A stretch of DNA of 64,000 bases from Candidatus Omnitrophota bacterium (GTDB lineage: Bacteria; Omnitrophota; Gorgyraeia; B26-G9). Shown here piece after piece: positions 23,720 through 61,477 of the stretch. The notes beneath the pieces were generated by a model. The model ran no database searches and was not told where the DNA came from. It saw only the letters and a list, made by a program, of their open reading frames with translations. The stretch lies in assembly GCA_018817165.1 (NCBI GenBank), contig JAHITY010000114.1, positions 81,721 to 145,720 of the forward strand. The letters run 5' to 3'. Both the position numbers and the translations under genes were made by a program. Each line of letters opens with the position of its first letter. Position 1 is the first letter of the stretch.

Positions 23720-23918
23720 GTAGGGGAGGGCCTTGCGTCCTCCCGGATATTAATATTATTATTGTAATTGTTGATGATAAAAATACCATGAATGTGGTTA
23801 GGCAGAATAATGTATTTGTTCAATTCAATATCAGCATTGATTGTGTATATTATTGCGGGCCGACGCAAGGTCTGCCCCTACGTTGTGTCTTTGTGACCTT
23901 GTGTCTTGTGACTTGTGA
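23720..23918 (+). repeat. Long-form GTAGGGG...CCCCTAC bipartite-hairpin element (about 162 bp) plus 3' tail of CTTGTGAC-like octamer repeats
   Basis: Left hairpin GGGAGG-gccttgcgt-CCTCCC, AT-rich core, right GC hairpin ...CCCCTAC(23881), then gttgtgtc tttgtgac cttgtgtc ttgtgac ttgtgaa; inverted copy at 49605-49734. Confidence 0.7.
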
Positions 23919-23928
23919 ATTATTTGGT

Positions 23929-23963
23929 TTGACAAAATTAGCGAGATTGATTATATTTATAAT
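23929..23963 (+). promoter_or_regulatory. Promoter-like TTGACA-N17-TATATT (and overlapping TATAAT) upstream of the PilZ membrane protein gene
   Basis: Read directly; about 85 nt upstream of the ATG at 24045. Confidence 0.35.
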
Positions 23964-24044
23964 CAAGGGATTGTTTAGATCTGAACATTTGAAGTTTTAG
24001 CTGGATTTTACAAGTTTGTTTTTTAACCAGGGAGCGATAAGTTT

Positions 24045-24740
24045 ATGGCTGCAAATAAAAGAAGGTATTCACGCTTAGATTCTGTGATAAATGGCACATT
24101 TCTCTCCAGAGAAGATAATGCTGTTGGAGACATGATGCTGACTAATTTTAGCCGTGACGGATTTAAAGCCGCACTCAGCCGTCCGATAGTTCCCGGGAGA
24201 ATTATCCAGTTTCAAATGAGATATCCTAATCAGACAATGCCTATTTTTGCCACAGGTAAAGTAATGTGGGTTAAATCAAAAAATCAGGATTTAACGTATG
24301 GTTTTGACGCGGGGATACATCTTATTGAGCCAGACGCGATAATTCGTCAAAAAGCCAGTGAATATGATTTTGATAATTGGCATATCAAACAAGTTGCTGA
24401 CTTTGCCAAGCAAAGAGGTTATCTGGCTAAGCATTTTCCTGATCAGGTTTTTAAATTATCCTGTTTTGTGCCCAGCGCCTTATTAATATATTTTATTTTA
24501 GGAGCCATTGTTTCTTTTTTGAATGTAAATATGGCTTTAATATACTCCGCGAGTATTATGGCTTATTTTTTATCAATTTTTGTCACAACTGCAATTTGGC
24601 TATTAACTGAAAAGAGCCATAAAACATTGATTGAAAAAATATCAGTGATTTTTCCAGTTAGTGCTGCGCGGATTTCTGCACATATAAGCTACGGTGTATT
24701 TTTCTTGCGTGGTTTATTCTCAAAAAAGGAATATAACTAG
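24045..24740 (+). CDS. PilZ-domain protein with C-terminal transmembrane segments
   Basis: RRYSRL (RxxxR) ... NFSRDGFKAAL (D/NxSxxG-like) ... GKVMWVK; two hydrophobic helices near C-terminus. Confidence 0.55.
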   Translation: MAANKRRYSRLDSVINGTFLSREDNAVGDMMLTNFSRDGFKAALSRPIVPGRIIQFQMRYPNQTMPIFATGKVMWVKSKNQDLTYGFDAGIHLIEPDAIIRQKASEYDFDNWHIKQVADFAKQRGYLAKHFPDQVFKLSCFVPSALLIYFILGAIVSFLNVNMALIYSASIMAYFLSIFVTTAIWLLTEKSHKTLIEKISVIFPVSAARISAHISYGVFFLRGLFSKKEYN

Positions 24741-25235: not shown

Positions 25236-25256
25236 AATTAGATTATTGTAATTTCC

Positions 25257-26830: not shown

Positions 26831-26852
26831 ATTTAATAGAAAGGGGTAGGGG

Positions 26853-29249: not shown

Positions 29250-29270
29250 TACCTAAAAAGGGGATAAACC

Positions 29271-34193: not shown

Positions 34194-35687
34194 TTGCATA
34201 AGGGGAAAATGAAAGAAAATATAAAAAAAATAGTTTTAATTAATCCACCTTGGATTTTTGCGCATGAACGGGAGATAGTCCTTTCGCAAAATTTAGGTTT
34301 GGGCTATTTGACGGCATATCTATTAAAACATGGTCATCAGGTTGAGATTATTGATGCTCTTTGTGAGGGTATTAATAATTATCAAAAGATAAAAAGTAAT
34401 GATCAGCCATTTTTACAAGTAGGTTTAGATTATCAGCAAATAGTCAAAAGAATCCCTTTGGACACAGATTTTATCGGGATTTCCGCTCCCTTTACCAATA
34501 ATGCGAAAATAGTCAAGCAATTAGCACATGTAATAAAAGAAAGTTTCCCGGAGATTCCAATTATTATGGGTGGGGTATATCCGTCATTGACTCCTTATGA
34601 TGCATTTTGCGAAAAGATTGAATATTATGTCATCGGCGAGGGGGAAAAGGCTTTGCTTGATTTGGTTAATGGGCAAGAGCCAAATCAGATTAAAGGAGTG
34701 CTTTGTTTTGGTAAGTCTAAAGGCTTTGAAGCTGGACAAATAATTGAAAATTTAGATCAGCTGCCTTTTCCGGCACGCGATAAATTGCCGATGAGTAAAT
34801 ATGTTAATTTTCATTCTCCCCGCAGGCTGCAACTTAAAACCGGATCAATAATCACTTCACGCGGCTGTCCGTTTGACTGTACTTTTTGTTCAATTCATCG
34901 GATTACCGGTTATAAATGGCGAATGCGCTCAGCGGAAAATGTTTTAGCGGAAATTCGGGAATTAGTTGAGAAATATGGGGTAGAGCATATTGAGTTTGAG
35001 GATGATAATCTTACTCTTGATAAGCAGAGGGCATTGGCAATATTTGAGGGGCTTATAAAAATAAACAAAGAACTTAAGCCTTTATCTTGGTCAACGCCCA
35101 ATGCAGTGCGGATTGATACGCTAGATCGGGATTTATTGGAAAAAATCAAGCAGTCGAATTGCCTGTCTTTGAATTTCGCGATTGAGTCTGGGGATCCGGA
35201 ATTATTAAAAAAGATGAATAAAAAACTTGATTTGAATACTGTCTTAGAAATGACAAGATTATGCAAAGCATTAAATATTAAAATGAATGCTTTTTTTATG
35301 ATCGGTTATCCCGGAGAAGACCAGGCAAGTTTTCAGAAAACTTTAAGTTTTATTAAGGAAATAAAAATAATCGGCGTGGACAATGTTTATACGACCATCA
35401 CGCGCGCTTATCCTGGTACAAAGCTCTATGAATTTTGTGAAAAAAATAATTATATTACAATTAAAGATAAGCAAATAAACACTTATTTGGGCAATGCGAT
35501 TACTCCGGAAAATCTGATTGTTACTCCGGATTTTGATAAAAAAGTTTTGCTTAAGAGATTAGCTTTGGTGGAAAAAGCGGTATATCCATGGTATCTGCGA
35601 TTTTATCATCGGTACGCGTATTTGATAAAAAAAATAATTCCAATTAATATGATAAAATATATAAAAAAGTTGATTGATGAAAAATAA
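34194..35687 (+). CDS. B12-binding-domain radical SAM enzyme (class B)
   Basis: N-terminal B12-binding-like region, TSRGCPFDCTFCSI CxxxCxxC; conserved DQLPFPARD block shared with paralog at 44321. Confidence 0.8.
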   Translation: MHKGKMKENIKKIVLINPPWIFAHEREIVLSQNLGLGYLTAYLLKHGHQVEIIDALCEGINNYQKIKSNDQPFLQVGLDYQQIVKRIPLDTDFIGISAPFTNNAKIVKQLAHVIKESFPEIPIIMGGVYPSLTPYDAFCEKIEYYVIGEGEKALLDLVNGQEPNQIKGVLCFGKSKGFEAGQIIENLDQLPFPARDKLPMSKYVNFHSPRRLQLKTGSIITSRGCPFDCTFCSIHRITGYKWRMRSAENVLAEIRELVEKYGVEHIEFEDDNLTLDKQRALAIFEGLIKINKELKPLSWSTPNAVRIDTLDRDLLEKIKQSNCLSLNFAIESGDPELLKKMNKKLDLNTVLEMTRLCKALNIKMNAFFMIGYPGEDQASFQKTLSFIKEIKIIGVDNVYTTITRAYPGTKLYEFCEKNNYITIKDKQINTYLGNAITPENLIVTPDFDKKVLLKRLALVEKAVYPWYLRFYHRYAYLIKKIIPINMIKYIKKLIDEK

Positions 35688-44294: not shown

Positions 44295-44320
44295 TTTTAA
44301 CAGAATACAGAGAGCTATGA

Positions 44321-45907: not shown

Positions 45908-45923
45908 AAAATTAAGGATAAAA

Positions 45924-47375: not shown

Positions 47376-47524
47376 GAGCCTGACTTACAGAGCGTTAGCG
47401 ATGTCAAGTCAGCCTGCTCGAATTTAGTCCGAAATAGCTGCGACCAAGCAGATATTTTCGGAATCATTATTATAAAAGCAGCGAATAGCGTTTAGCGTAT
47501 AGGAAAAAGATAAAAACAGAAATT

Positions 47525-47551
47525 GTAGGGGCCGATCCATGTATCGACCCG
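47525..47551 (+). repeat. Solo left-end half element (GTAGGGG + hairpin GGCCGATccatgtATCGACC)
   Basis: Shares GTAGGGG terminus and GC hairpin but lacks core/right end; about 45 nt of AT-rich spacer separates it from the full copy. Confidence 0.5.
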
Positions 47552-47594
47552 TTACAAAATGATAAAAAATATCATGAAAAATGATAATCATAAA

Positions 47595-47697
47595 GTAGGG
47601 GCGCTGCTTGCCTGCGCCCGCTTATTAATGATTTTACCGATTTATGGAATTGTATATTATTACGGGCCGAGGCAAGCGCGGCCCCTACGTTGTGACC
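47595..47697 (+). repeat. Short-form GTAGGGG...CCCCTAC element + GTTGTGACC tail
   Basis: Same architecture as 44184/45796 copies. Confidence 0.75.
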
Positions 47698-47715
47698 TTT
47701 TAAAAAAGGAAAATT

Positions 47716-48855: not shown

Positions 48856-48879
48856 ATATAAAAACTAGGAGAATGGATA

Positions 48880-49587
48880 GTGCAAGTAATTTATGATCAA
48901 GCTGATCCTTGGGAATTGTATTTGAAAACCCTTAATCAATGTATTGAACAATATTCCTGCAAAAGTTTGTGTGAAATCGGCGGGGGAGCTTTTCCCGCGA
49001 TTTCTTTAGAGCAAATAAACCGGCAGAAGCTTGATTATACAATTCTCGATATATCGCAGGTCGAGTTAGATCGGGCGCCTCAAGGATACCGGAAACTTTT
49101 AGCGGATATTTGTCAGCCGGATTTAAATATCACTGAGCAGTATGATTTTATTTTTTCTAAAATGCTGGCTGAACATGTTAAGGACCCAGAACTGTTTCAT
49201 TCCAATGTCTATAAATTGCTTAAGCCCGGAGGGATTGCTTTTCATTTTTTTCCGACCTTGCATTCTTTGCCATTTATGATTAATTGGTTATTGCCGGAAT
49301 TTATCGCTAATTTTTTATTTAAACTTTTTGTCTGCAATGATCCAATTGAGCATAAAAGATTTTCTGCGCATTATAAATGGTGTAAAGGTCCGACCAAAAA
49401 GCAGATCAGTAATTTCGAAGGCTTAAATTATGAAATATTGGTTTATCAGGGATTTTTCGGTCACAAATATTATCAGCGGATTCATTTGCTAAGAGATATC
49501 CATAAACTTGTAGTCAAGCTCTTAGCGAGATTTCCTAATCCTTATCTGACCAGCTTTGCTTTTGTGATTCTAAGAAAAAAATCCTAA
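48880..49587 (+). CDS. Putative class I SAM-dependent methyltransferase
   Basis: Motif I-like CEIGGGAF, post-III LLKPGG; weak. Confidence 0.5.
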   Translation: MQVIYDQADPWELYLKTLNQCIEQYSCKSLCEIGGGAFPAISLEQINRQKLDYTILDISQVELDRAPQGYRKLLADICQPDLNITEQYDFIFSKMLAEHVKDPELFHSNVYKLLKPGGIAFHFFPTLHSLPFMINWLLPEFIANFLFKLFVCNDPIEHKRFSAHYKWCKGPTKKQISNFEGLNYEILVYQGFFGHKYYQRIHLLRDIHKLVVKLLARFPNPYLTSFAFVILRKKS

Positions 49588-49604
49588 GTGCAGCGGATAG
49601 GTTA

Positions 49605-49734
49605 CAACGTAGGGGCCGCGCTTGCCTCGGCCCGTGACAATATAAATTTATCTAACCTCATTCATGGTATTTTGATCATCAACAATTACAATAATGATAT
49701 TAATATTCGGGAGGACGCAAGGCCCTCCCCTACG
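49605..49734 (-). repeat. Long-form element, inverted orientation relative to 23720 copy (internal ~35-bp deletion)
   Basis: Reverse complement aligns with 23720-23881 across both termini and about 75 bp of core with few mismatches. Confidence 0.7.
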
Positions 49735-49794
49735 ATTTCTGATATTATCTTTTTCTGGTTATTGTTGTTGTCATTTTATTATTGTTTTATATCG

Positions 49795-49818
49795 GACAGG
49801 TCGTGACCTGTCCCTACA
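49795..49818 (+). repeat. Solo right-end half element (hairpin GGACAGGtcgtgaCCTGTCC + CTAC)
   Basis: Hairpin followed by CCCTAC-type terminus about 60 nt downstream of the full element. Confidence 0.4.
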
Positions 49819-50055
49819 GGATTTTGTTTTTTCATTTTTGCTCGTCTTGTCCTAATATAGTTGACACTTTTTAACATAAATAATTTACTTAACCGCCCGC
49901 TTCGCTCGATAAACACTGATTAACACTGTTTAAAACAACTATTTACTCCTTTAAGTACGCTCAATACTTTTTATCTGCGTCCATCTGCGTTCATCTGCGG
50001 TTAATTTATTTTTCTGTCAACCTATTTCAGGATATCACACTCTATCTCCTATTCG

Positions 50056-51441
50056 CTAATCGCTATTTACAATTCGAAGCACTGCGGCGGCAACATTTCT
50101 GGCGATTACTTCATAGCCGGAAGCGGTGCAGTGCCGGTCAAATTCCGAGACAAAAAATTCCCGGGGGGAGTGTTCTTGGAGTAGATCATAAAAAGTTAGG
50201 CTATTGTCGACTAAAGGAATATTATATTTTTCTGCCACGGTTTTCATGTCTTCCAATAAGATCGAGGGATAGCTGGAAAAAATTAAATCGATCTTTTCTT
50301 GTTCGCAGAGTTTTGCGGCTTTTTCATAATTAAGGTATCGGAGTTCCGAAATATTGATTATTCTTTCGCTGATTTTTTTTGAAAAGTTTTTCCAAAATGA
50401 TTGGGGTTTATTCTTTGGATTATAAGCCGCTTTGCTCTGGACATAATAACTTTCTAATAAGTCAAGCTCGGACTTACTCAGACTATTAATATCCAGAGTT
50501 TTTGTTTGGCTGTTGGCGATTTTTTTTGCTAGATTACTGGAAAAAAACGGTTCGCCGAGAATAGAATAAACATAGCATAATCTTTGGATTAAATACATAT
50601 TGTCGGGAAAGCGATTTTTTAGTCTTAAGAGTAAAGAAAATTCTTCCGGGATGTTTTTGTGTTTTATGAATAAGTCAGTTAATTCCCTGTGAATGATTTT
50701 ACTTTCTGGGTTTTGAACAAACGCTTTTTCAAGAGTTAGTCCGGCGGCTTGGTAATCTTTGGTTAATTTTTGACAGCGCCCCAATTCAAGCAGAGCAATA
50801 GGATCCTGCGGATTAATCATCAGCGCTTGTTCATAATACGCCTGAGCTTGATTGTACTTTTTTGCGTCTCTTAACTGATTGGCAGTTTTAATGATTGAAG
50901 GGATATCCGAGCCAGGGGCGATCGGAGTCTTTAAATTATAAGCAATAAGGTCAATCAGTTTGAAAAATTTAAGATTTAGGCTAAAGGGGTTTAATTCCTG
51001 GATTGATTTAGAAAATCTGAACTTGCAATATCTGGGCAAGGACCAGGTATCATTTATTCCGCTCAAGATAATAACAATGTCCGGCTGAAATTCTTTGACT
51101 GCTTTGTCTAATTTAATTAATGTTTGACTTAAGGTTTCTCCGGGTATGCCTAGATTTTTCACCAGAAAAATTTTGTTTTGCCTGCTTTGATTCAATATCT
51201 TTTCCATTTGCGCTGGGTAGCTGTTTTCCCTACTCGCGCCCAGGCCATAAGTAAACGAATCACCCAAGCAGATGATTTTACAGACATTTTCCGTGTTTTC
51301 GCTGTTTGCTGCTTGATTTCTTTGGTTGGGAGAAGAAGCAATCGGATTAAATAGATTAAGACATATTTCCACAAAAACAATAGCCAGCGCTATGCCAAAC
51401 AGGATTAAACCTAAAATAGATTTTTGAACTTTTTTTTTCAT
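50056..51441 (-). CDS. Secreted SGNH/GDSL-type hydrolase-like protein with large internal TPR-repeat insertion
   Basis: Signal/anchor helix; block I ICLGDSFTYG, block II NLGIPGET, block III ILSGINDT; about 250 aa TPR-like segment; C-terminal FDRHCTASGYEV resembling the catalytic His block. Confidence 0.6.
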   Translation of the reverse strand: MKKKVQKSILGLILFGIALAIVFVEICLNLFNPIASSPNQRNQAANSENTENVCKIICLGDSFTYGLGASRENSYPAQMEKILNQSRQNKIFLVKNLGIPGETLSQTLIKLDKAVKEFQPDIVIILSGINDTWSLPRYCKFRFSKSIQELNPFSLNLKFFKLIDLIAYNLKTPIAPGSDIPSIIKTANQLRDAKKYNQAQAYYEQALMINPQDPIALLELGRCQKLTKDYQAAGLTLEKAFVQNPESKIIHRELTDLFIKHKNIPEEFSLLLRLKNRFPDNMYLIQRLCYVYSILGEPFFSSNLAKKIANSQTKTLDINSLSKSELDLLESYYVQSKAAYNPKNKPQSFWKNFSKKISERIINISELRYLNYEKAAKLCEQEKIDLIFSSYPSILLEDMKTVAEKYNIPLVDNSLTFYDLLQEHSPREFFVSEFDRHCTASGYEVIARNVAAAVLRIVNSD

Positions 51442-51641
51442 AATTTTTTCATAAAACAGCTTTAGATTATTAAGCTAAGTGATGGATAATAGAAGATTTA
51501 TGCTTAATTATTCAGGAATGGTAAATCAACTAAAGCATTAAAAATTCTCAAGCATAGCCAATTTTCAGTTTTTATTTGATTTAAACCAATAGCTGATATG
51601 CTTTGATTATATTTTCCCTACTGGTTTTAGTCAATAATAAT

Positions 51642-51670
51642 TTGCTTTTTTAAGCTTTCTATATTATAAT
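51642..51670 (+). promoter_or_regulatory. Promoter-like TTGCTT-N17-TATAAT for the PAP2-like gene (divergent region)
   Basis: Counted in sequence, 9 nt before the ATG at 51680 (leaderless or short leader). Confidence 0.35.
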
Positions 51671-51679
51671 TATCTAACT

Positions 51680-52144
51680 ATGCAGCTAAAAGACACGAAT
51701 TTTTTTGAAGAGGTTATCAGTAATAGAATTATCTGGGCTTCGTTTTGCTCTTGGGGAATAGCTCAAAGCATTAAAATCATTACCGGCGTGATCAAGGAAA
51801 AGCGGTTTGATTTCCGATGGTTGATGAGTACAGGAGGGATGCCTAGCGCCCATTCCGCGGGAGTCAGCTCTTTGGCCACTGCCGTAGGGATGTATTCTGG
51901 TTTTGATACAGTTGTTTTTGCGATTACCGCGATTATTGCTTTGATCATCATGTTTGATGCGCAAGGATTGCGTCGGATGACTGGCCGTCAAGCTGTAGCC
52001 TTGAATAAACTTATGGAAGACATTTATTATAAACATGAAGTAAAGCCTGAGCGATTAATGGAATTGATTGGACATACACCTGTGGAGGTATTTGTCGGGG
52101 CATTACTGGGGATTATGGTTGCTATTTTTGTAGTGACTTTGTAA
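51680..52144 (+). CDS. Divergent PAP2 family membrane protein (PF02681-like)
   Basis: GGMPSAHSAGVSSLATAVG signature, 154 aa, 3-4 TM. Confidence 0.65.
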   Translation: MQLKDTNFFEEVISNRIIWASFCSWGIAQSIKIITGVIKEKRFDFRWLMSTGGMPSAHSAGVSSLATAVGMYSGFDTVVFAITAIIALIIMFDAQGLRRMTGRQAVALNKLMEDIYYKHEVKPERLMELIGHTPVEVFVGALLGIMVAIFVVTL

Positions 52145-52154
52145 GGGGGTTGGA

Positions 52155-53108
52155 ATGAGAAGAAACTTTATTATCGGAATACTTATTGTTTTGGCAATAT
52201 TTTTTATAATGAAAATGGGACATTCTAAGAAACAAGCAGGATCAGGAGCAGAAGTAGAAGTAGAAGCAAAAGCAGAAGCAAAAGTTAGTTCGCCTTTGCC
52301 AGAATCAGAAATTGCTTTAAATATGGCTTTAGAAATAAAAACCAATAATCCAGAACAGGCGGTAGAGGCATTGGATAAAGTTATTGCTGATTTCCCGCAA
52401 ACTATAGAAGCGGAAAAAGCAATTATAACTATTGCTGATATTTATAATAAAGGCCAGGATACTGATATGGAAAAGCAGGCTTTAAATCGCTTGATCGAAC
52501 AGTATCCGAATAGTGAATTAAAGGAAAAAGCTTTAGACAGAGTAGCAACGATTAATTTGGACAGCTTTTTTTCCCGCGCGCCGACTGCGAATAGTATTAT
52601 TTATGAAGTGCAGCCAGGGGATTCATTGTATAAAATAGCTAAACAATATCATACTAATGTGGAATTAATTCAGAAAACGAATAATTTGAATAGTTCCTTG
52701 ATTAAGCCAGGGATGAAATTAAAAGTCATAACTTCAGTTTTTTCCTTGTTTGTGAGCAAGACAGATTGTTTGATGACTTTAAAGGCTGATGGCGAACTGG
52801 TTAAAGTTTACAAAATCGGGATCGGCCGGGATAATTCTACTCCGGTTGGCCAATTTAAAATTGTAAATCGGATTATTAGTCCGGTTTGGTATAAAACCGG
52901 AGCAATTGTTCCGGCAGGCAGCGCGGAAAATATTTTGGGAACTCGTTGGCTGGGATTATCCGAGCCAGGCTATGGGATTCATGGAACAGTCGATAATCAG
53001 CCGATTCAGCAACAGAAGACTCAGGGTTGCGTGCGGATGATGAATGATCAAGTCGAAGAATTATTTGTAATTGTTCCAGTAGGAACAGAGATTGTTATTG
53101 TTGATTAA
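52155..53108 (+). CDS. LysM + YkuD-domain L,D-transpeptidase with N-terminal TPR-like region
   Basis: LysM YEVQPGDSLYKIAKQYHTNVELI; YkuD catalytic HGT...GCVRM. Confidence 0.8.
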   Translation: MRRNFIIGILIVLAIFFIMKMGHSKKQAGSGAEVEVEAKAEAKVSSPLPESEIALNMALEIKTNNPEQAVEALDKVIADFPQTIEAEKAIITIADIYNKGQDTDMEKQALNRLIEQYPNSELKEKALDRVATINLDSFFSRAPTANSIIYEVQPGDSLYKIAKQYHTNVELIQKTNNLNSSLIKPGMKLKVITSVFSLFVSKTDCLMTLKADGELVKVYKIGIGRDNSTPVGQFKIVNRIISPVWYKTGAIVPAGSAENILGTRWLGLSEPGYGIHGTVDNQPIQQQKTQGCVRMMNDQVEELFVIVPVGTEIVIVD

Positions 53109-53285
53109 TTGAAAAGCAATTTAACCTTATTTAGCTTTATAAGTTAAGATGATTCCCGAATCAGCAGCTAGCCGCTGCTTCTCGGGCAAAATTCCCCGCC
53201 ATAGAACAGCGGGACAAGCGCGCTGGTTGACTTGACGTCGCTAAAAGCGCTTCGTAAGTCAAGCGTTTATTTAAGGAAAATAAAT

Positions 53286-54242
53286 ATGAGCGGAACCGGA
53301 TTAGAATTTGAAAAACCAATAGTAGAGCTTGAACAGAAAATCCTGGAATTGCGGAATTTTTCCGATAATCGAAAAATTGATCTTTCCGATGAGATTGTAA
53401 AGTTTGAGGAAAAACTGAAAAAACTAAAGGAAGATATCTATGGCAATCTCAGCGCTTGGCAAAAAGTGCAGATTGCCCGGCATCCGAAACGTCCTTATAC
53501 TAAAGATTATATTAATTTGATTATGACTGATTTTATTGAATTGCACGGAGATCAGTTGTTTGGCGATGATCAGGCGATACTTTGTGGTTTGGCGAAAATC
53601 GACGGTCAGAAAGTCATGGTGATCGGACATCAAAAAGGCCGGGATACAAAAGAAAATCTTAAACGCAGTTTTGGCTGCGCTCATCCGGAAGGATATCGCA
53701 AGGCTTTGCGTTTGATGCGTTTGGCTGAGAGATTCAATGTGCCGATTATAACTTTTATTGATACGCCGGGAGCTTATCCGGGAATAGACGCTGAAGAGCG
53801 AGGACAAGCCAATGCGATCGCGGTTAATATTCGTGAGATGTCGCAATTTAAAGTGCCGATAATTATTGTGATCATTGGCGAAGGCGGGTCTGGCGGGGCA
53901 TTAGGGATTGGCGTTGGCGATCGGGTTTGCATGTTTGAAAATTCATATTATTCGGTAATTTCTCCAGAAGGCTGTGCCGCGATTCTTTGGCGTAATCGGG
54001 CTAATGCTCCGGAAGCAGCAGCAGCGCTGAAAATTACCGCGGATGATTTGACTAAATTGAAAATTGTTGATGAGGTTATTCCCGAGCCATTGGGTGGGGC
54101 GCATCGTGCTCCGAGTATTGCCGCGGCAGCCTTAAAAACATCGCTTAAGAAAAATCTCAAAGAATTGTTAAAACTGCCGATTGAACAGCTGGTGGAAAAA
54201 CGTTATGAAAAATTCAGAAATATGGGAACGTGGAACGAATAA
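53286..54242 (+). CDS. accA: Acetyl-CoA carboxylase carboxyltransferase alpha subunit
   Basis: MSGTGLEFEKPIVELE...; AccA blocks (ARHPKRPYT, FIDTPGAYPG, GEGGSGGALG); start at 53286 with SD AAGGA. Confidence 0.9.
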   Translation: MSGTGLEFEKPIVELEQKILELRNFSDNRKIDLSDEIVKFEEKLKKLKEDIYGNLSAWQKVQIARHPKRPYTKDYINLIMTDFIELHGDQLFGDDQAILCGLAKIDGQKVMVIGHQKGRDTKENLKRSFGCAHPEGYRKALRLMRLAERFNVPIITFIDTPGAYPGIDAEERGQANAIAVNIREMSQFKVPIIIVIIGEGGSGGALGIGVGDRVCMFENSYYSVISPEGCAAILWRNRANAPEAAAALKITADDLTKLKIVDEVIPEPLGGAHRAPSIAAAALKTSLKKNLKELLKLPIEQLVEKRYEKFRNMGTWNE

Positions 54243-54265
54243 ATTTTAATTAACCGGAGGTTGAA

Positions 54266-54868
54266 ATGAAAAAATCAGTAGCTTGGCATTTAACGCAAAA
54301 AGAGTTTATCTCTGATCAAGTATTTATAAAATCTATAGGGATCATTACTTTTTTATTATTAATTACTTTAGGAGCATTTGTTTATATTCCTTTGCCGTTT
54401 ACTCCGATTCCGATGACTTTGCAGACATTTTTTGTATTGTTATCCGCTGCTTTTTTAGCTAAAAAAGACGGAGCTTTTGTTCAGAGTTTATACGCGGGAC
54501 TTGGGGCGATGGGATTGCCGATTTTCAGCGCGGCTCAGGGCGGCTTATTGAAATTATTCGGACCAACCGGAGGCTATATAGTTGGTTTTATTGCCGCTGT
54601 ATTTGCTTTAAAGCAGATGCTTAATTATTTCAGCAAAAAAAGTTTGAAACTGACTTTTCCGCAGGTTGTAATATCGATGACAACTGCGATGTTAGTGATT
54701 TATGTTTGCGGTGGCTTATGGCTTGCGATTTCTTTAAAGTTTACATTCAGCCAGATTATTATGCTGGGAATTGTTCCGTTTATTCCCGGGGAAGTAATTA
54801 AAGTATTATTGGCTTCTACGATTTATTACAAATCAAATGAAAGATTGAAAAATATTTTTCAAAATTAA
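54266..54868 (+). CDS. bioY: BioY-family biotin transporter (ECF S-component)
   Basis: TPIPMTLQTFFVLL...GPTGGYIVGF BioY signature; adjacent to accA. Confidence 0.8.
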   Translation: MKKSVAWHLTQKEFISDQVFIKSIGIITFLLLITLGAFVYIPLPFTPIPMTLQTFFVLLSAAFLAKKDGAFVQSLYAGLGAMGLPIFSAAQGGLLKLFGPTGGYIVGFIAAVFALKQMLNYFSKKSLKLTFPQVVISMTTAMLVIYVCGGLWLAISLKFTFSQIIMLGIVPFIPGEVIKVLLASTIYYKSNERLKNIFQN

Positions 54869-54886
54869 AATATAGCTGAATTAAAA

Positions 54887-54917
54887 AAGCGGATCTTAAC
54901 CGATCCGCTTTTTTTTG
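54887..54917 (+). terminator. Rho-independent terminator after bioY
   Basis: AAGCGGATC-ttaacc-GATCCGCTTTTTTTTT. Confidence 0.65.
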
Positions 54918-55103
54918 TTTCTAAAATTATTGTTATTTAGCTATGTTGACTAAACAGCTTATTTCTCTGGCGGTCCGGAATCAATTATTTTGGCTCATTC
55001 TCGTCCCGCATCGTGCGGGACTCCGAGGATGAATCTCTGATTTTGCCAGTCCTATCAAAATCAGGCTTCAAACCCGCTAAAATAATTATTTCTGCCCTCT
55101 ATA

Positions 55104-55245
55104 GTAGGGGCGCTGCTTGCCTGCGCCCGCTTATTAATAATTTCACCTATTTAATTAATTGTATATTATTCCGGGCCGGGGCAAGCGCGGCCCCTACGTT
55201 GCAACCTGTGTCCTTGTGACGTGTGACCTTGTGACCTGGTGTCCT
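55104..55245 (+). repeat. Short-form GTAGGGG...CCCCTAC element + long tail of CTTGTGAC-like octamers (about 5 units)
   Basis: ...CCCCTAC gttgcaac ctgtgtc cttgtgac gtgtgac cttgtgac ctggtgtcc; tail ends at the TAG stop (minus strand) of ORF 55244..55429. Confidence 0.75.
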
Positions 55246-55429
55246 AAAATAAGGTATAAATAAACGGTACTGCTGCCGGATTGCTCGCGGTGAAAATAAT
55301 CAGACCCCCAATTAAAATCAGAACAATGAAAAACGGGGTGAGCCACCAGATCTTATTTTCCCAAAGAAATTGCAGCAATTCATTGATTATTTTAAAGCGC
55401 TGTTTTAAAATATTAAATATTTTTTTCAT
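55244..55429 (-). CDS. Small membrane protein (61 aa) translationally coupled downstream of the carbamoyltransferase gene (possible SxtK/DUF5989-like companion)
   Basis: ATGA overlap with upstream gene; one TM helix WWLTPFFIVLILIGGLIIF. Confidence 0.4.
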   Translation of the reverse strand: MKKIFNILKQRFKIINELLQFLWENKIWWLTPFFIVLILIGGLIIFTASNPAAVPFIYTLF

Positions 55430-57213
55430 GATTTTTTTTCATCCTTATATATAATATAATCGCCTAAAACCAAAAGGTCAATACCGCTGCGGATAAAAGT
55501 ATTATACGCGTTTTCCGGAGTATTGACAACCGGTTCGCCTTTTAAATTAAACGATGTGTTTAAGAGCACTGGTATTCCAGTTTTTTGGGCAAAAGCACTT
55601 ACTAAATCATAATATAAAGGATTTGTTTCGCGGTTGATAGTTTGGACTCTACCGGTTCCTTGATGATTAACCGCGGGAATAACTTTTCTCTTCTCAGGCT
55701 TAATTGCTAAAACCAAAAGCATAAAACGCAAAGGGTATTGATTGGGATTTTTTATCTCAAAATAATTTTCTAATTCGCTTTCCAGAATTACCGGAGCAAA
55801 AGGGCGAAAAGGCTCGCGGAATTTAATTTTCGCGTTAACGATCTCCTTCATTTTCTCATTGCGCGGATCAGCAATAATCGAGCGATTGCCCAAAGCACGG
55901 GGGCCCCATTCAAATCTGCCTTGAAACCAGCTGATGATCTTGCCATCAGCAATGGCTTGAGCGCAGGTATCAATCAATTGCTCTTTAGCCGTAAATTTTT
56001 TTGCGGAAATATTATTTTCATTTAGGAAATCAGCTATTTCCTGATTTGAATATTCCTGTCCTAAATAAGCATTATCCATAACATATTCTCTTTTTTGATC
56101 AAGAACTGTATGATATACATATAAAGCCGCGCCAATTGCCGCTCCTGAGTCTCCGGGAGCCGGTTGAATATATATCTGTTCAAATGGCCCATCTTGCAAA
56201 ATACGGCCATTTGCCGTTGAATTTAAGGCTACTCCGCCGGCAATGCATAGCTGTTTAAGGCCGGTTTGTTGAGCGAGAAATTCAATTTGTTTTAAAATGA
56301 TCTGTTCAATTACTTGCTGAATACTTGCGGCAATATCGGCAAAGTATTGATTCTTAATGCAAAGCTCGGCATAATCAAGGGGTTTTTCGCCAAAATAAGC
56401 GGGGTATTCAAACTGATCAGTGAAAAAATCACTGTTTACCGCGCGGCTTGGGCCAAATAAAGTTTCCAGTTTTTTGCTAAAGCTTTTTTTAGAAGAATGC
56501 TGAAAACTGAAATAATCCAGGTTTAAAGCAAATGATCCGTCATCAGCAATCTGCAGTACCTTTTCTTTGATTTTATCCGCGAAGCAAGGTTGGCCATAAG
56601 CAGCCATGCCCATGACTTTATACTCGCCTTCATTGACTTCAAATCCCAGATAAGCCGTAAACGCGCTGTATAAAAGCCCTAAAGAGTGAGGGAAGTTAAT
56701 TTGTTTGAATAGTTTGATATCATTTTCTTGGCCAATGCCTAATGTTCCGGTGGCCCATTCGCCAACACCGTCAATGGTCAGAATTGCCGCTTGTTTAAAT
56801 GGACTAAGCAGAAAAGCACTGGCAGCATGCGCAAGGTGATGCTCGGTAAATAGAATCTTATCCGGGGAAATATTAAATTTTCCTTGGATCGTGCTTTTGA
56901 TCCAGAGTTTTTTAGTCAGCCATTTTTTCATTACCTGTCCAAATACCGCGCAAGACAAAGGATAGCTACTGACAATTGTTTTCATGATCCGATCTAATTT
57001 ACGAAATGGTTTTTCATAAAAAACCACATAATCAATATCCTGGCTTGATATCCCGGCATGGGCCAAACAAAATTCAATTGCTAAATTAGGAAAATTCGAA
57101 TCATGCTTTTTCCGGCTAAAGCGTTCTTCTTCAGCCGCCGCGATGATTTTTCCGTTTTTAAGCAAAGCCGCGGCAGAATCATGATAATAGCAGGAGATAC
57201 CTAAGATATACAT
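55426..57213 (-). CDS. NodU/CmcH-family carbamoyltransferase
   Basis: N-terminus MYILGISCYYHDSAAALLKNGKIIAAAEEERFSRKKHD; HypF/YrdC-like C-terminal domain; 595 aa. Confidence 0.85.
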   Translation of the reverse strand: MYILGISCYYHDSAAALLKNGKIIAAAEEERFSRKKHDSNFPNLAIEFCLAHAGISSQDIDYVVFYEKPFRKLDRIMKTIVSSYPLSCAVFGQVMKKWLTKKLWIKSTIQGKFNISPDKILFTEHHLAHAASAFLLSPFKQAAILTIDGVGEWATGTLGIGQENDIKLFKQINFPHSLGLLYSAFTAYLGFEVNEGEYKVMGMAAYGQPCFADKIKEKVLQIADDGSFALNLDYFSFQHSSKKSFSKKLETLFGPSRAVNSDFFTDQFEYPAYFGEKPLDYAELCIKNQYFADIAASIQQVIEQIILKQIEFLAQQTGLKQLCIAGGVALNSTANGRILQDGPFEQIYIQPAPGDSGAAIGAALYVYHTVLDQKREYVMDNAYLGQEYSNQEIADFLNENNISAKKFTAKEQLIDTCAQAIADGKIISWFQGRFEWGPRALGNRSIIADPRNEKMKEIVNAKIKFREPFRPFAPVILESELENYFEIKNPNQYPLRFMLLVLAIKPEKRKVIPAVNHQGTGRVQTINRETNPLYYDLVSAFAQKTGIPVLLNTSFNLKGEPVVNTPENAYNTFIRSGIDLLVLGDYIIYKDEKKS

Positions 57214-57467
57214 TAAAATTGTCTCCTTAAGCTTTCTAGGCTATTATCAGCAGGCTTTATGTCTAGCCAGAATGAAGTTGGTTTATTGTTTTGGCTAGGA
57301 TTATTTAAATCAGGAGAAATGCTTTTAGTTTGAAAACTATTTTTATAAACAAAATAATAGGGCAGGATCAGAATAAAATAAAGCAGAGCTAAAACAATAT
57401 TCAAAGGGATTTGAATGATTTGAATTAAAACAGTCAGTATTTTTTTAAAACCTAATTTCATGATCAA
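57213..57467 (-). CDS. Small membrane protein (84 aa) immediately upstream of and coupled to the carbamoyltransferase gene
   Basis: One TM helix; 1-nt overlap with downstream gene start. Confidence 0.35.
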   Translation of the reverse strand: MIMKLGFKKILTVLIQIIQIPLNIVLALLYFILILPYYFVYKNSFQTKSISPDLNNPSQNNKPTSFWLDIKPADNSLESLRRQF

Positions 57468-57564
57468 AAACTTTAATTTTATATCGTGGATTAGCAGATA
57501 GTGATAGCTGAATTTTGCTTATGCTAATCTTAGCATATTCTCGATGTTTAGCCAATTGATTTTT

Positions 57565-57589
57565 GTAGGGCCACGGCGTGACGTGGCCG
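57565..57589 (+). repeat. Solo left-end half element (GTAGGG + perfect hairpin GGCCACGgcgtgaCGTGGCC)
   Basis: Same architecture as the 47525 solo unit, about 30 nt upstream of a full element. Confidence 0.45.
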
Positions 57590-57621
57590 TATCATTAATA
57601 TTTGATCAATATTATAATTTT

Positions 57622-57710
57622 GTAGGGGCGCTGCTTGCCTGCGCCCGTTTATTAATGATTCGATTGGATTATTACGGGCCGGGGCAAGCGCGGCCCCTAC
57701 ATTGAAATCT
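57622..57710 (+). repeat. Short-form GTAGGGG...CCCCTAC element (shorter core); right flank ATTGAAATCTTGTGTTC
   Basis: Both terminal hairpins conserved; ends 12 nt before the minus-strand TAG stop of the AsmA-like gene. Confidence 0.7.
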
Positions 57711-57721
57711 TGTGTTCTTTT

Positions 57722-60700
57722 CTATTTAAAAATCCCGTTAAGGACTCCTTTAAATAATTCCATCTTTATGTCTTTTTCGGAGTTTTGCTGCGGTTCGTCC
57801 GGGGATTTAGTTTTTAAAAGATTATTAAGTATCGCATTAGCGCCAAGTCCAAACAATAATTTTTTTTGGTCGATTATTGGCGCGCTGAGCGTGCCTTTGA
57901 CTTCAATTTCTTTTTGATAAACTTTTCCATTAAAATCAAAAACATCGCGTAAGGCCTGATTTATTTTTTGCGCGCCGGATTCAGTTAATTGGAGAGTTGT
58001 CCAAAAGTTTTCAAAGCCCAGAGTATCAAGCAGGATCGCGCCGCGGGCTAAGATAATTGCTTCCGGGCCATTAAAGCTGGTGTTTTGCAGCGTTGCTTTT
58101 GCCTGGTCAAAAATAATATCGGCATTGCCTTGAGTAATTTCAAAATTAACCAGGAAATCCGCGCTGAAGATAGCGGCAATTGATTTAAGCAAAGGCATGG
58201 CGATGATCAGCGCGTCATTTAATTTAATATTTGCTTTGCCCTGGATTGTTTTTAAATCATTGCCCGTGCCGTTTAGGTCAGCATTCAGAGATACGATGCC
58301 TTTATGCTGTTGAGCAATGATTTTTGATTCTTTGATCAACAGGCCAAAATCGAGCTTATCAATATTCGCTTTAGCGGTATAAGTAAATTTTGGCTGAGTA
58401 AAATCCGCATCAACAATTAAATCAGCTTTGCCTTGATAAGCATTAAGTCGGGCATCTGCATTAAGGATTTTATTGCGCATATTGGCCTTAAGCGCAATTT
58501 CATTGAGTTTAATTTTTTTAATTTCAATTTGATCAGATAAAATATTTGCCGTTAAATTCATCGCGGCTAAATCAGACACTGGAGTATCAATATTAATTTT
58601 TGCCGAAACATTGCCTTTTAATTCCAGGCTATCCAACTGTTTTTTAATATTCTGGGGAATCGGCAGTTTGTTCAAGTCATCAATATTCAGCTGAGAATCA
58701 ATATCCAGATTTATCAGCGGATTATTATTCAGTGAACTTATTTTGCCGGAGGCTTTGGCCAGGATGTCTTTATACACAAGTGATGAATCTTTTAAAATAA
58801 TACTATTGTTCTGATAATCCGCGTTTATTTGGGCATTGGCTTTTTCAATTGTAATCTTATTAACCAGTACATTTTTTAAATCAAGATCAAGCTTGGAATT
58901 AAAATTTAGATTTTCCGGTTTGGCTCCAGAGCCGGATAGCTTAATTTGCGCGTTCAGCAGTCCTTGAAAATCCGTCTGAATTAATTTGGTTTGCAGGGCA
59001 AAAGACTGCATATCCAGCTGTTCAAGATTTGCGGTTAAATTAAATTTAGGGCTTGCGATATTGTTTAGATCCGCATTAGCCGCGGCTTTGATTTGTCCGG
59101 AATATAATTCAGCGAGCAGGGAAGAAAGATTAAATTGTTGATTTTTAAAAGTGCCTTTGGCTTTTAAACTGTCGAGATTAAATTGATTGTATTTAAGTTC
59201 AGCCGTATTAAGGTTAAAACTTATTTCCAGGGTTTGAGGTTTTTTTAATAAACCACTGGTTTTGAAATCAATTATCGGATTACCGCTTAATTTAAATGTA
59301 TCGGGTAGTTTGAGCATTGAATAAGTATTGAGCTGGTCTAATTTAGTTTTTAGCTGTCCGGTTAGCTCAGCATTTGGATCAAATATAATATTAGCGATAT
59401 TTCCATTAATGCTCAGCTGACTGACCAGATCATTGAGCACTGCTTTGCGCAAAACAATGCTATTTAGATTTTTTATGCTCAGATCCGCGTCAAGTTCAAT
59501 CAACTCCGGCAAAATCATTTGTTGATAGATCAGATTATTTCCCGTAATACTTGTTTCTAAAGTTATAAGATTTAAATCCAAAGCGCTGCCTTTTAGGGAG
59601 ATATTGGCATTAATTCTTCCCGCCAAATAATCATTAAACTTTGCTTTTTGCGCCAAAATTTCTTTGAGCTTTTTCAACTCTAAATCAGCGAGATTGGCGC
59701 GCAGATTATAATCACGATCTTTACTCAATAGATTAAGGCTGCCAGTAAGGTTAATCGCGGTATCGAGCAGACTGAGCGATAGATTAGACAGATTAACTTG
59801 TCCGTTTTCAATCTGGGCTTGGATGAGTAAATTATTGATCTCATAGTCAAATAAACGCAGCTTATCAGTGTTAAGCGATATTGTTCCGCCCAGCTCGGGG
59901 ATGTTTCTTAATGGCCCATTTATCTGGATATTGCCGTTTAATATTCCGCTGGGTTTTGCTGTTTCTAAAATTGGTTTTATTTCTAAAGGCAGCTGCGCTA
60001 AATCCTCAAGCTGAATTTTGATTCGGGTGCTTATTTGAGCCAGAGGGTTTTCTTTTAGATCAGCAATCTGTCCGGTTACATCCAGGCTGATTTGATTGTA
60101 GCTGGCAGTCAGCTGGGAAATTAAAAGCGTATCTTGGTTTAAATCGCATTTTAATTTAACTAACAGCGGGCTAAGTTCGCAATTAAGTTCTATTTTGGGA
60201 TTAGCATAATCTTTGATTAAAAAATCAAGCTTGGCGATCGCGTCATTAATTGTTCCTTGGAGATCAGAGGCGTAAATATTATCTTTATGAATGTTTATTG
60301 TTCCTTTTATATCTTTGATCTGACCAAAAACCGGTATTTGATTGATTTCCATGGGGTTTAGCTTTAATTCAGCGCTGTAATTTAAATTGTCCGGGTTTTT
60401 AAGATCAAGATTTATCAATACATTGGCTTGCGCGTCAAGGTTGATGATTATTGGCGCTTGATTGACTTGGGCTTTGCTTATTTCCAGATAGAAAGGCAAA
60501 TCAAATTTATTTTTATCCTTATTCCAAGAAGTAAATATTTGTTTATAATCAGGGATTAATCTAATTAAATCAGCAAACACAAAAGTACTATTGCTTTGTT
60601 TTTGATAAAGCGCAACTTGCTTGATCGCAATAATTCCTTGCGGAGATATCTGGATATTTTTTATCTTAATTTCCTGGCCCAGGGTTTTGTTGATCTGCTT

Positions 60701-60826
60701 TTCAATCTGAGGAATAGCAATCTGAGGCAAGAGGATAAGATTGATCAGAAAATATCCGCCAATAATCAAGCTAAGGATAATTGCCAGAAAAATAAACAAA
60801 ATGATTAAGGGATTAGTTTTTTTCAT
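57722..60826 (-). CDS. Large AsmA/TamB-like envelope protein (N-terminal membrane anchor, ~1000-aa repetitive beta-rich region)
   Basis: Single N-terminal TM, N/Q/L/K-rich repetitive body with recurring 'LxxNxxI' patterns, no enzymatic motifs. Confidence 0.5.
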   Translation of the reverse strand: MKKTNPLIILFIFLAIILSLIIGGYFLINLILLPQIAIPQIEKQINKTLGQEIKIKNIQISPQGIIAIKQVALYQKQSNSTFVFADLIRLIPDYKQIFTSWNKDKNKFDLPFYLEISKAQVNQAPIIINLDAQANVLINLDLKNPDNLNYSAELKLNPMEINQIPVFGQIKDIKGTINIHKDNIYASDLQGTINDAIAKLDFLIKDYANPKIELNCELSPLLVKLKCDLNQDTLLISQLTASYNQISLDVTGQIADLKENPLAQISTRIKIQLEDLAQLPLEIKPILETAKPSGILNGNIQINGPLRNIPELGGTISLNTDKLRLFDYEINNLLIQAQIENGQVNLSNLSLSLLDTAINLTGSLNLLSKDRDYNLRANLADLELKKLKEILAQKAKFNDYLAGRINANISLKGSALDLNLITLETSITGNNLIYQQMILPELIELDADLSIKNLNSIVLRKAVLNDLVSQLSINGNIANIIFDPNAELTGQLKTKLDQLNTYSMLKLPDTFKLSGNPIIDFKTSGLLKKPQTLEISFNLNTAELKYNQFNLDSLKAKGTFKNQQFNLSSLLAELYSGQIKAAANADLNNIASPKFNLTANLEQLDMQSFALQTKLIQTDFQGLLNAQIKLSGSGAKPENLNFNSKLDLDLKNVLVNKITIEKANAQINADYQNNSIILKDSSLVYKDILAKASGKISSLNNNPLINLDIDSQLNIDDLNKLPIPQNIKKQLDSLELKGNVSAKINIDTPVSDLAAMNLTANILSDQIEIKKIKLNEIALKANMRNKILNADARLNAYQGKADLIVDADFTQPKFTYTAKANIDKLDFGLLIKESKIIAQQHKGIVSLNADLNGTGNDLKTIQGKANIKLNDALIIAMPLLKSIAAIFSADFLVNFEITQGNADIIFDQAKATLQNTSFNGPEAIILARGAILLDTLGFENFWTTLQLTESGAQKINQALRDVFDFNGKVYQKEIEVKGTLSAPIIDQKKLLFGLGANAILNNLLKTKSPDEPQQNSEKDIKMELFKGVLNGIFK

Positions 60827-61032
60827 AGTACTGCTTATTATATTAAATCAGTATCTTATTGCAAGTCATATTTAGCTTGGATAAATCTAAGAATAATTTT
60901 AGCAATGCTTTATGCGCAAAACAATCTTCTGATTTATTTTTTTTATTCTTGACAAACTGCCTGACTGAGGAATAAAATAAATAATAGGGTGCAAATAAAT
61001 GGATTTGGTTTAATTTTACAAGGAGAGGTAAA

Positions 61033-61407
61033 ATGGCACTGAGCGGAGCTGTATGTGAGAGAAGGAAATTTGTTAGAATGTATTCTGATTTTCCTGTACA
61101 GTTAAAGTACATGAAGCCAAATACGCCTATTCAAATTCACAATTCACTTTCCCAGGATTTAAGTGAGGGGGGGCTGCAGATATCTTCATATTATTTTTAT
61201 CCTGTGAATTCTCAAATGATTGTGGAATTACAACTCAATGCGGACACGGTGCCAATAAAAACTGTTGGTAAGGTTGTTTGGGTCGAGCAGCTGCCTTATC
61301 AGGATGTTTTTAAACTCGGAATAGAGTTTTCCGAATTAAGCGTATTTAATCAAAAAGCTTTGCGCCAGCTTATTGCTGATAAATTCGATTTAAATCAAAT
61401 CAATTAG
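61033..61407 (+). CDS. Stand-alone PilZ-domain c-di-GMP receptor
   Basis: RRKFVRM (RxxxR) ... DLSEGGLQI (DxSxGG) ... GKVVWVE canonical PilZ blocks; 124 aa. Confidence 0.65.
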   Translation: MALSGAVCERRKFVRMYSDFPVQLKYMKPNTPIQIHNSLSQDLSEGGLQISSYYFYPVNSQMIVELQLNADTVPIKTVGKVVWVEQLPYQDVFKLGIEFSELSVFNQKALRQLIADKFDLNQIN

Positions 61408-61477
61408 TAGTGGCCGCGCTTGCCTCGGCCTGATTATTGATAATTCTATACGGGCGCAGGCAAGCGGCGCCCCTACT
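61408..61477 (-). repeat. Short-form element in inverted orientation (70 bp), directly abutting the TAG stop of the PilZ gene
   Basis: TAGTGGCCGCGCTTGCCTCGGCC ... CGGGCGCAGGCAAGCGGCGCCCCTAC = reverse complement of the right and left termini of the + copies. Confidence 0.6.

Follow-up and report, generated by a model that had tools for sequence, protein, structure and literature searches.

Repetitive extragenic palindromes (REPs) of the GTAG type are defined by a GTAG tetranucleotide joined to a hairpin with a GGG foot; Di Nocera et al. reported that TAG stop codons provided by such REPs are common, and that arrays of GTAG REPs lie around exopolysaccharide genes (PMC3733652). In the definition of Nunvar (2010) and Di Nocera (2013), a conserved GT[AG]G stands at the 5' foot of a GC-rich stem-loop of 20-40 nt, conserved in structure more than in sequence, with many extragenic copies and an associated RAYT gene. 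According to Quentin et al. (2018), who described the subclass 2.4 TnpAREP transposases (PMC6006769), the REPs of this subclass combine GTAG with three consecutive G-C pairs at the foot of the stem and occur in frame inside the transposase gene, "generally between HuH and Y"; the subclass occurs abundantly among the Cyanobacteria and Bacteroidetes and scattered elsewhere, and the supplement reports a Cytophaga hutchinsonii REP, GTAGGGGCGACCCTTGCGGTCGCCC. Here, we analysed a stretch of 64,000 nucleotides (the window) from Candidatus Omnitrophota bacterium (GenBank assembly GCA_018817165.1, contig JAHITY010000114.1, positions 81,721 to 145,720 of the forward strand), in which a family of short palindromic repeats had been noticed from the letters alone (hereafter, the original prediction). 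This family shares with the subclass 2.4 REPtrons the GTAG head, the three G-C pairs at the foot and the CTTGC loop (compare the C. hutchinsonii REP above), as well as the occurrence of REPs both in frame inside the tnpAREP gene and flanking it, and the scattering across phyla. We consider it highly probable that the repeats of the window are GTAG-type REPs, mostly arranged as inverted doublets resembling REPINs (REP doublets forming hairpins) or bacterial interspersed mosaic elements (BIMEs), and that they are the cognate substrates of a clade of RayT/TnpAREP enzymes (REP-associated tyrosine transposases, Y1 HUH) whose genes carry the hairpins in frame.

Repeat units and doublets in the window

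With about 37% G+C, the window is AT-rich; its GC skew is positive throughout. It contains 17 occurrences of GTAGGGG (2.4 expected), 13 copies of the 25-nt unit GTAGGGGCSSYGCTTGCCTSSSCCC with up to three mismatches (0 in shuffled sequences), and 16 perfect GC-rich hairpins headed by GTAG, for which 100 dinucleotide shuffles gave 0.03. All 16 units begin with GTAG (GTAGGG in 15 and GTAGTG in one), they span 38 kb, and every one is intergenic. The site-by-site reading of the window resulted in eight inverted doublets of 70-162 bp and three solo units (Table 1). The true solo units (47525-47550, 57565-57588 and, on the minus strand, 49793-49817) have other stems, and two of them begin with GTAGGGC or GTAGGGA. 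The GTAGGGG at position 26846 was rejected as an element, since it is a chance match in the ribosome-binding/start region of the open reading frame (ORF) at 26853.

The original prediction had placed eight doublets in this region, which both the reading of the sites and the counts against chance confirmed; six of the eight starts were exact, the other two being 49609 (not 49605) and 61407 (not 61408). It had also attributed perfect 7-bp termini to every copy and two size classes to the family. The former does not apply to 61407, whose head is degenerate (GTAGTGG), and the latter gives way to a series of 70, 79, 94, 125 and 162 bp. The right flank starting with GTTG was found in six of the eight doublets, on the side of the unit named REP1 (or B; REP1 and REP2 are the two units of a doublet in RayT sense), and not in the remaining two. 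Similarly, the intergenic position stands, though three copies overlap a stop codon (44187, 45799 and 61407), whereas a usual distance of 0-20 nt from a stop codon does not: about half of the copies lie within about 22 nt of one.

Each unit is 24-26 nt long and consists of the GTAG head, a 6-bp stem starting from GGG, above which come a mismatch or wobble, a single further pair and a CTTGC loop, and a return strand ending with CCC (stems of 6-8 bp). The GGG..CCC foot is present in 14 units headed GTAGGGG; units 49817 and 57565 have only GG..CC, and unit 61407 (GTAGTGG) also lacks GGG..CCC. The stems differ from each other through paired changes (GGGCGC/GCGCCC, GGGCCG/CGGCCC, GGGAGG/CCTCCC, GGACAGG/CCTGTCC and others). 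In a set of 30 distinct units from the window and from related loci, chosen without demanding complementarity, 94% of the stem cells were paired, versus 81% after shuffling (0 of 500 shuffles reached the observed value) and at most 57% when the partners were slid. This covariation among the aligned units shows that the hairpins are selected as structures.

When folded as DNA, the doublets had energies from -16.6 to -25.6 kcal/mol (z from -2.2 to -5.9), and the four 94-bp strands folded as RNA reached -43 to -47 kcal/mol (z from -4.1 to -6.3). In the predicted minimum-energy fold the two arms pair together, the whole doublet becoming one long hairpin. The local hairpin inside each terminus that had been proposed for these copies is thus a possible fold, not the predicted optimum; both forms are possible.

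The four 94-bp copies share 86-95% identity over 111 nt, and the flanks are unrelated among five short copies (these four and the 79-bp one). The inverted repeats at the termini, GTAGGGGC..GCCCCTAC, might suggest a MITE (a miniature transposable element with inverted repeats) derived from an insertion sequence with a DDE transposase, which would bring terminal inverted repeats together with a target-site duplication. However, no flanking direct repeat was found at any of the eight copies, the core is homologous to a Y1/HUH gene and not to a DDE one (see below), and the covariation of the stems points to the recognition of a hairpin rather than of a duplex, which makes such an origin very improbable.

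In six doublets GTTG follows the REP1 unit, and in four of them (23881, 44277, 47688 and 55197) GTTG is followed by one or more octamers of the type TTGTGWC(C). These octamers, with a variable C/T, are repeated in tandem at 23883-23918, 44279-44296, 47690-47698 and 55206-55244; they also occur in four loci from other genomes (L018, L038, L057 and L033; the loci are introduced in the next section). On the REP1 side they start one base past ...CCCCTAC-G, and the RayT gene lacks them. A target motif, a by-product of strand transfer and a binding site are candidate roles for them.

No T-run follows the hairpins, whose tails read GTTGTGTCC, and a terminator scan called none of the doublets. The same scan called a canonical intrinsic terminator (13-bp stem, then a T-run) at 54883-54914, after a BioY-like gene; hence, the ordinary terminators of the window genome look unlike the REPs. 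The Rfam scan suggested with the original prediction gave no match at gathering score in the whole window and, near 55 kb at E up to 1, weak matches only, on a terminator. A tRNA scan of the window found nothing.

The RayT clade and the origin of the doublets

Probing a species-representative genome collection with the 25-nt pattern retrieved at least 93 stretches (loci L001-L093). In L001, L011, L021, L032, L040 and L087 both hairpins lie in frame within an ORF of about 180 amino acids, and partial copies of this hairpin-bearing RayT ORF are harbored by L010, L030, L047, L071, L086 and L091. The forward unit encodes the peptide VGAxLAxA and the reverse unit RAxASxAPT; the region between the two hairpins, ..IGQIIxxQWxxIPNQYxNVELDxYIIMPNHIHGIxIINN.., includes the HUH motif. 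The clade possesses the RayT motifs PNHIH and WQRSFYDH..REYIxNNP, the latter in a region that aligns to TnpAREP (PDB 4ER8), and its ORFs score above the cut-off of the Pfam family Y1_Tnp (PF01797). In an AlphaFold model of a clade protein (predicted local distance difference test, pLDDT, 81; predicted template modelling score, pTM, 0.76), the hairpin-encoded peptides fall in low-confidence loops, and a Foldseek search with this model retrieved ISDra2 (2XM3), TnpAREP (4ER8) and IS608 (2VJV) with E of about 1e-7. Their motifs and predicted fold place the clade proteins among the RayT-type Y1 HUH transposases.

A protein search retrieved 2091 homologues, some of which are named "REP element-mobilizing transposase RayT" by JGI. 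Among the best 116 of these 2091 with the HUH motif, the first hairpin peptide is kept in 108 and the second in 111. Moreover, residues 3 and 8 of each peptide covary (A/A, T/V or E/S), as the complementarity of the DNA hairpin dictates. The retention of the peptides, together with this covariation, indicates that in this clade both intragenic REPs have come close to fixation and are maintained as hairpins. A presence/absence polymorphism of the intragenic hairpins, suggested by a strict pattern, was discarded after alignment, which revealed that the "missing" cases are diverged hairpins and not empty sites.

The position of the REPs with respect to the gene is not uniform. Most clade genes have REPs inside the ORF only, and in some (L010, L040 and L021) a further REP is located immediately upstream or at the 3' end. 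The RayT gene of a Spirosomataceae genome (L006) has no internal hairpins and shows the classical layout, with doublets of the same REP on both sides; its product shares 35% identity with the Omnitrophota-type protein (E 4e-39), with gaps exactly at both peptides. As for the copy number, two full RayT copies are present in one related metagenome-assembled genome (MAG; L040 and L087, JBDRBQ01) and two in L086, and decayed RayT genes were found in other MAGs (L031 and L033).

The doublets of the window were then compared, as a deletion series, with the hairpin-to-hairpin segment of six RayT genes. The 162-bp copy, on the minus strand, keeps ..DIELNKYIILPNHIHGIFIINN..REDARPSPT and still codes for ..YIILPNHIHGIFIINN..; it matches the RayT protein P0001 with a BLASTP E of 1e-13 (24 identical residues out of 46) and the L032 gene at 73% over 148 nt by BLASTN. 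The 125-bp copy reads in frame VGAALASAR-DNINLS and, after a gap of about 31 codons, LIHGILIINN..REDARPSPT-ISDII (BLASTP versus P0001, E 9e-08). The closest full protein to these long copies is P0086, from another sample, which has the same REDARPSPT-ISDII. In the 94-bp copies only the codons adjacent to the hairpins are left (..RNNIQL.. and ..IINK..), and the 79- and 70-bp copies retain even less of the core. Furthermore, the 94-bp form pairs its stems as the L032 gene does, with GGGCCG at REP1 and GGGCGC at REP2. These alignments show that the doublets of the window represent an internal-deletion series of the RayT REP-HUH-REP segment.

A more complex arrangement was found at 49609-49817, a mosaic of three REPs in which the 5' end of a RayT gene is joined tail-to-tail to the 125-bp doublet. 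The stretch 49751-49817 is 91% identical to positions 4564-4633 of L033 and 76% identical to the start of the L010 RayT gene; this tail-to-tail join implies that RayT fragments were rearranged there. In another MAG (L029), an independent REP-HUH-REP mini-element is bounded exactly at both REPs. Positions 4564-4830 of L033 (about 265 bp) comprise an upstream REP, a truncated RayT gene in which the N-terminus runs into the HUH region, and another REP; this unit is an intermediate between gene and doublet.

The coding remnants in the two long copies, the few gene-like codons outside one hairpin, the RayT 5' end at 49751-49817 and the decayed genes of the other MAGs (L031 and L033) might also be read as signs that each copy is a RayT pseudogene, i.e., a full gene that decayed in situ rather than a miniature that spread. 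Nevertheless, none of the eight copies is accompanied by N- or C-terminal RayT sequence, and no such sequence was found elsewhere in the window except for the 5' end just mentioned; the four 94-bp copies, with unrelated flanks, have one internal deletion and one CAAC/octamer junction in common. In addition, several contigs from other Omnitrophota MAGs (L018, L038, L039, L055 and L090) bear this 94-bp deleted form at 85-90% identity. The shared deletion junctions, the tail that does not derive from the gene and the unrelated flanks argue that a shrunken unit spread, and the decay in place of eight genes appears improbable.

Table 1. Position, strand and main traits of the repeats and of the associated features in the window.
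Feature	Position	Strand	Details
Flank past REP2 of the 162-bp doublet, common to 49734-49760	23690-23719	-	remnant of RayT codons after the second hairpin (PT-IxxII), by alignment
162-bp REP doublet, RayT sense on the minus strand	23720-23881	-	REP1 = GTAGGGGCAGACCTTGCGTCGGCCC, 23881 down to 23857
REP2 of the 162-bp doublet	23744 down to 23720	-	GGGAGG..CCTCCC
RayT-derived core of the 162-bp doublet		-	encodes DIELNKYIILPNHIHGIFIINN
GTTG, then octamer tail (TTGTGWC units)	23882-23918	+	
94-bp REP doublet	44184-44277	-	A unit GGGCGC on +, B unit GGGCCG on -
GTTG, then octamer tail GTTGTGTCCTTGTGACCTT	44278-44296	+	
94-bp REP doublet	45796-45889	-	
Solo REP, different stem (GTAGGGGCCGATCCATGTATCGACCC)	47525-47550	+	
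94-bp REP doublet	47595-47688	-	
125-bp REP doublet, RayT sense on the plus strand	49609-49733	+	
Third REP (GTAGGGACAGGTCACGACCTGTCC), then RayT 5' untranslated region, ATG and 8 codons (MTTTITRKR)	49751-49817	-	
94-bp REP doublet	55104-55197	-	
GTTG and longest octamer tail	55198-55244	+	
Solo REP, different stem (GTAGGGCCACGGCGTGACGTGGCC)	57565-57588	+	same unit also in L033 and L009
79-bp REP doublet, core further deleted	57622-57700	-	
70-bp REP doublet, degenerate head GTAGTGG	61407-61476	+	adjoins the stop of the PilZ gene 61033-61407
Sigma-70-like matches	44222-44249, 45834-45861, 47633-47660, 55142-55169	+	consensus

Genomic setting and dispersal of the copies

The stop codons of the ORFs 42283-44187 and 44321-45799 are the TAG of GTAG in the doublets 44184 and 45796, respectively, and the PilZ gene ends at 61407 with a TAG that shares one base with the unit. 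In a cluster of co-directional glycosyltransferase, radical-SAM and methyltransferase genes, four successive gaps contain one element each, two of which supply the stop codon; the exopolysaccharide-gene arrays of Di Nocera et al. resemble these four filled gaps. The doublet at 57622 is antisense to both of its neighbours, and the one at 55104 lies between convergent genes. An extra doublet of 136 bp with other stems was found about 551-686 nt to the left of the window (L174, positions 2517-2652), between ftsW and murG: the stop codon of ftsW is the TAG of its GTAG, and its core has a decayed HUH-like stretch. No doublet was found in the 7.4 kb to the right of the window. Regarding the orientation, the RayT sense lies on the minus strand in seven out of nine doublets, which is not significant with respect to the GC-skew strand.

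In E. coli, REPs affect mRNA. The elements of the window might likewise be maintained mainly for effects on RNA or expression, by stabilising mRNA 3' ends, attenuating translation at stop codons or acting as outward promoters, their link with RayT being only historical. Four consecutive gaps of the cluster with an element each, two donated stop codons and the very stable RNA fold are in agreement with this idea, and so are the TAG stops and the exopolysaccharide-gene flanks described for GTAG REPs (PMC3733652). The 94-bp cores also contain a sigma-70-like TTGACC-16-TATTAT directed toward the downstream genes, with up to 10 matches out of 12, a consensus match in AT-rich DNA. On the other hand, the hairpins lack a T-run and no doublet was called by the terminator scan, one doublet is antisense to both neighbours and another separates convergent genes, and the promoter-like matches barely exceed those in shuffled sequences (55 versus 43). 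Moreover, a role in expression would account for the use of the elements and not for their origin and spread, and it is compatible with their being RayT substrates; as an explanation of the family it is unlikely.

The alternation of genes and elements across 44-50 kb, the length of 70-160 bp and the GTTG at one end are reminiscent of integron-type attC sites separating gene cassettes. Yet this GTTG is one-sided, without an RYYYAAC partner, each arm folds on itself into a GTAG-headed hairpin, the cores derive from RayT, and copies are also present in the dcw cluster and between convergent genes; an attC nature is therefore extremely improbable. The attC, MITE and intrinsic-terminator readings were all rejected on their defining features.

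Two further observations concern the surroundings of the copies. The glycosyltransferase/methyltransferase cluster harbors four paralogous genes (34194-35687, 35842-37353, 44321-45799 and 45924-47375), all sharing the DNA repeat families D5-D10; the two that were tested, the last ones, encode B12-binding radical SAM proteins. Moreover, the stretch 54972-55096 (about 125 nt), immediately to the left of a doublet, is 89% identical to positions 1328-1456 of L033, where the gene context is unrelated; the coding DNA of the L033 MAG is only about 76% identical to that of the window. The predicted fold of this stretch consists of a closing stem and two hairpins, with one stem wholly swapped compared to L033 (5 compensatory pairs). 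It matches nothing in Rfam; a structured RNA and a further miniature repeat are both candidate identities.

REPs are commonly regarded as species-specific. Among the matches listed, the REP 25-mer was found in MAGs of about ten phyla, the labels of the matching MAGs being Omnitrophota, Chloroflexia, Ktedonobacteraceae, Spirosomataceae, Cytophagales, Planctomycetota, Elusimicrobia, Thermoanaerobaculia, Calditrichaceae, Auribacterota and others; for short AT-rich contigs, some of these labels may reflect binning errors, and the Chloroflexia and Spirosomataceae matches are on megabase contigs. One of the Omnitrophota MAGs with the 94-bp form is collinear with positions 1-3036 of the window at 76% identity, which makes an Omnitrophota origin of the window probable. 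Over the 18.6 kb compared (positions 45426-64000), the window is 100% identical to the 217-kb ENA contig ERZ27247128:k141_409720. A short-read Logan contig (L176, SRR7067536) ends inside REPs on both sides, at positions 55172 and 57637 of the window, which indicates that these repeats fragment the assemblies of the window genome. The copy about 0.6 kb outside the window and those on the contigs of related MAGs imply that the family is not a local duplication confined to this 40-kb region, the case that would have refuted the original prediction.

Proposed explanation and relation to described systems

By analogy with the enzyme family (PMC3333891, PMC8266576, PMC6006769), the following scenario can be depicted. 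A single-stranded unit would fold into the 6-bp GC stem, the mismatch, one further pair and the CTTGC loop, with the GTAG at the 5' foot of the hairpin serving as a guide. RayT would bind the folded hairpin, cut at a nearby CT or CA and rejoin the strands; in this way, two inverted units and their spacer could be copied to new intergenic sites with no target duplication. By homology, the doublets are copies of the REP-HUH-REP segment that lost progressively more of the core (162, 125, 94, 79 and 70 bp), and the cognate enzyme must be encoded outside the window. TAG stop codons for the upstream genes and strong hairpins at the 3' ends of mRNAs are likely side effects of these insertions.

Some results weigh against this explanation. 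With the NCBIfam model REP_Tyr_transpos (REP-associated tyrosine transposase; curated cut-off 80 bits), the clade ORFs fall just short, at 70-77 bits. In the two long copies, about 16-30 nt resembling the gene remain past one hairpin, and all the copies have a flank not derived from the gene (CAAC and octamers) at the other end, which blurs the ends of the mobile unit. The original statement that no RAYT is present holds for an intact gene, since tblastn with six clade proteins retrieved only fragments from the 64-kb window, but not for remnants, which include the HUH motif in 23720-23881 and 49609-49733 and the 5' end at 49751-49817; no RayT gene was found in about 10 kb read beyond the window either. 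Lastly, a metagenome scan for an empty site via the carbamoyltransferase gene that neighbours two doublets retrieved relatives with at most 65% identity and no orthologous loci, and exact-protein look-ups with the window proteins gave either nothing or the same genome at 99.99-100% identity, hence no close strain. As no empty site was found, the movement of the elements is deduced from the structure of the copies only.

In the original prediction, the architecture was regarded as REP/BIME- or MITE-like, and the family as apparently novel. The former agrees with the GTAG-type REP features and with the inverted doublets; the latter does not, as the signature is that of GTAG-type REPs (PMC3733652) and, in a narrower sense, of the subclass 2.4 REPs (PMC6006769). 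The family is thus of a known kind, i.e., GTAG-type REP doublets of the RayT system, and not a new class; the REP class had been described, whereas no name for the element in this lineage and no paper linking Omnitrophota with REPs or RAYTs were found in the literature searched. By its REP features the family fits subclass 2.4 TnpAREP/RayT, short of a formal placement. Compared to the description in that paper, the intragenic REPs are here located both before and after the HUH motif, bracketing the HUH-coding segment, and both are nearly fixed; besides, the dispersed doublets carry this segment as their core. A fixed second REP before HUH, spacers made of the HUH segment, an octamer tail and the occurrence in Omnitrophota are not stated in the portion of the source consulted.

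The REPINs and RAYTs of Pseudomonas fluorescens SBW25 (Bertels and Rainey 2011, PMC3116915) share with the window family two inverted REPs with a short spacer forming one long hairpin, doublets outnumbering singlets, and a RAYT acting in trans as the presumed mobiliser. In SBW25, however, the spacer does not come from a gene, and the RAYT exists as one copy flanked by REPINs (PMC3116915); a RAYT of this sort is also vertically inherited, whereas related MAGs have at least two RayT copies and the REP is found in about ten phyla. The REP/BIME system of E. coli with TnpAREP (RayT/YafM; PDB 4ER8; PMC3333891, PMC8266576) has the same 5' GTAG guide and hairpin on single-stranded DNA, a Y1 HUH enzyme and two stem types of inverted REPs per BIME, and the fold of the clade matches 4ER8. 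It differs in its bulged and imperfect REP stem with other sequences, in a gene without intragenic REPs, and in a protein that shares about 17% identity with that of the clade in a structural alignment.

More distant similarities can be found in two other systems. The IS200/IS605 elements (IS608, ISDra2) resemble the window family in their enzyme fold and subterminal hairpins; they likewise make no target duplication, and they insert beside a short fixed motif, to which the CAAC beside REP1 is possibly analogous; they carry their own tnpA between hairpins of the same strand, whereas the window family has inverted hairpins and non-coding dispersed copies. The Rickettsia palindromic elements (PMC3733652) are likewise in-frame palindromic repeats tolerated in the surface loops of proteins, but they are found in many unrelated host genes, whereas here the notable in-frame sites are in the transposase gene itself and the window copies are intergenic.

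These results have a practical consequence for annotation: the elements should be labelled as REP/REPIN of the RayT system, and REP hairpins encode the odd VGAxLAxA and RAxASxAPT peptides of hundreds of "transposase" entries from metagenomes. The window displays side by side the sizes from a REP-HUH-REP fragment to a bare 70-bp doublet, and hints at an origin of doublets from a transposase gene. A more speculative possibility, which we regard as rather doubtful at present, is that the REP-bracketed HUH segment is the master copy seeding the REP doublets, that the enzyme could cut, excise or invert a part of its own gene as a self-limiting or switching device, and that the CAAC/octamer tail marks the site of strand transfer. 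If true, this would represent a visible route for the birth of REPINs.

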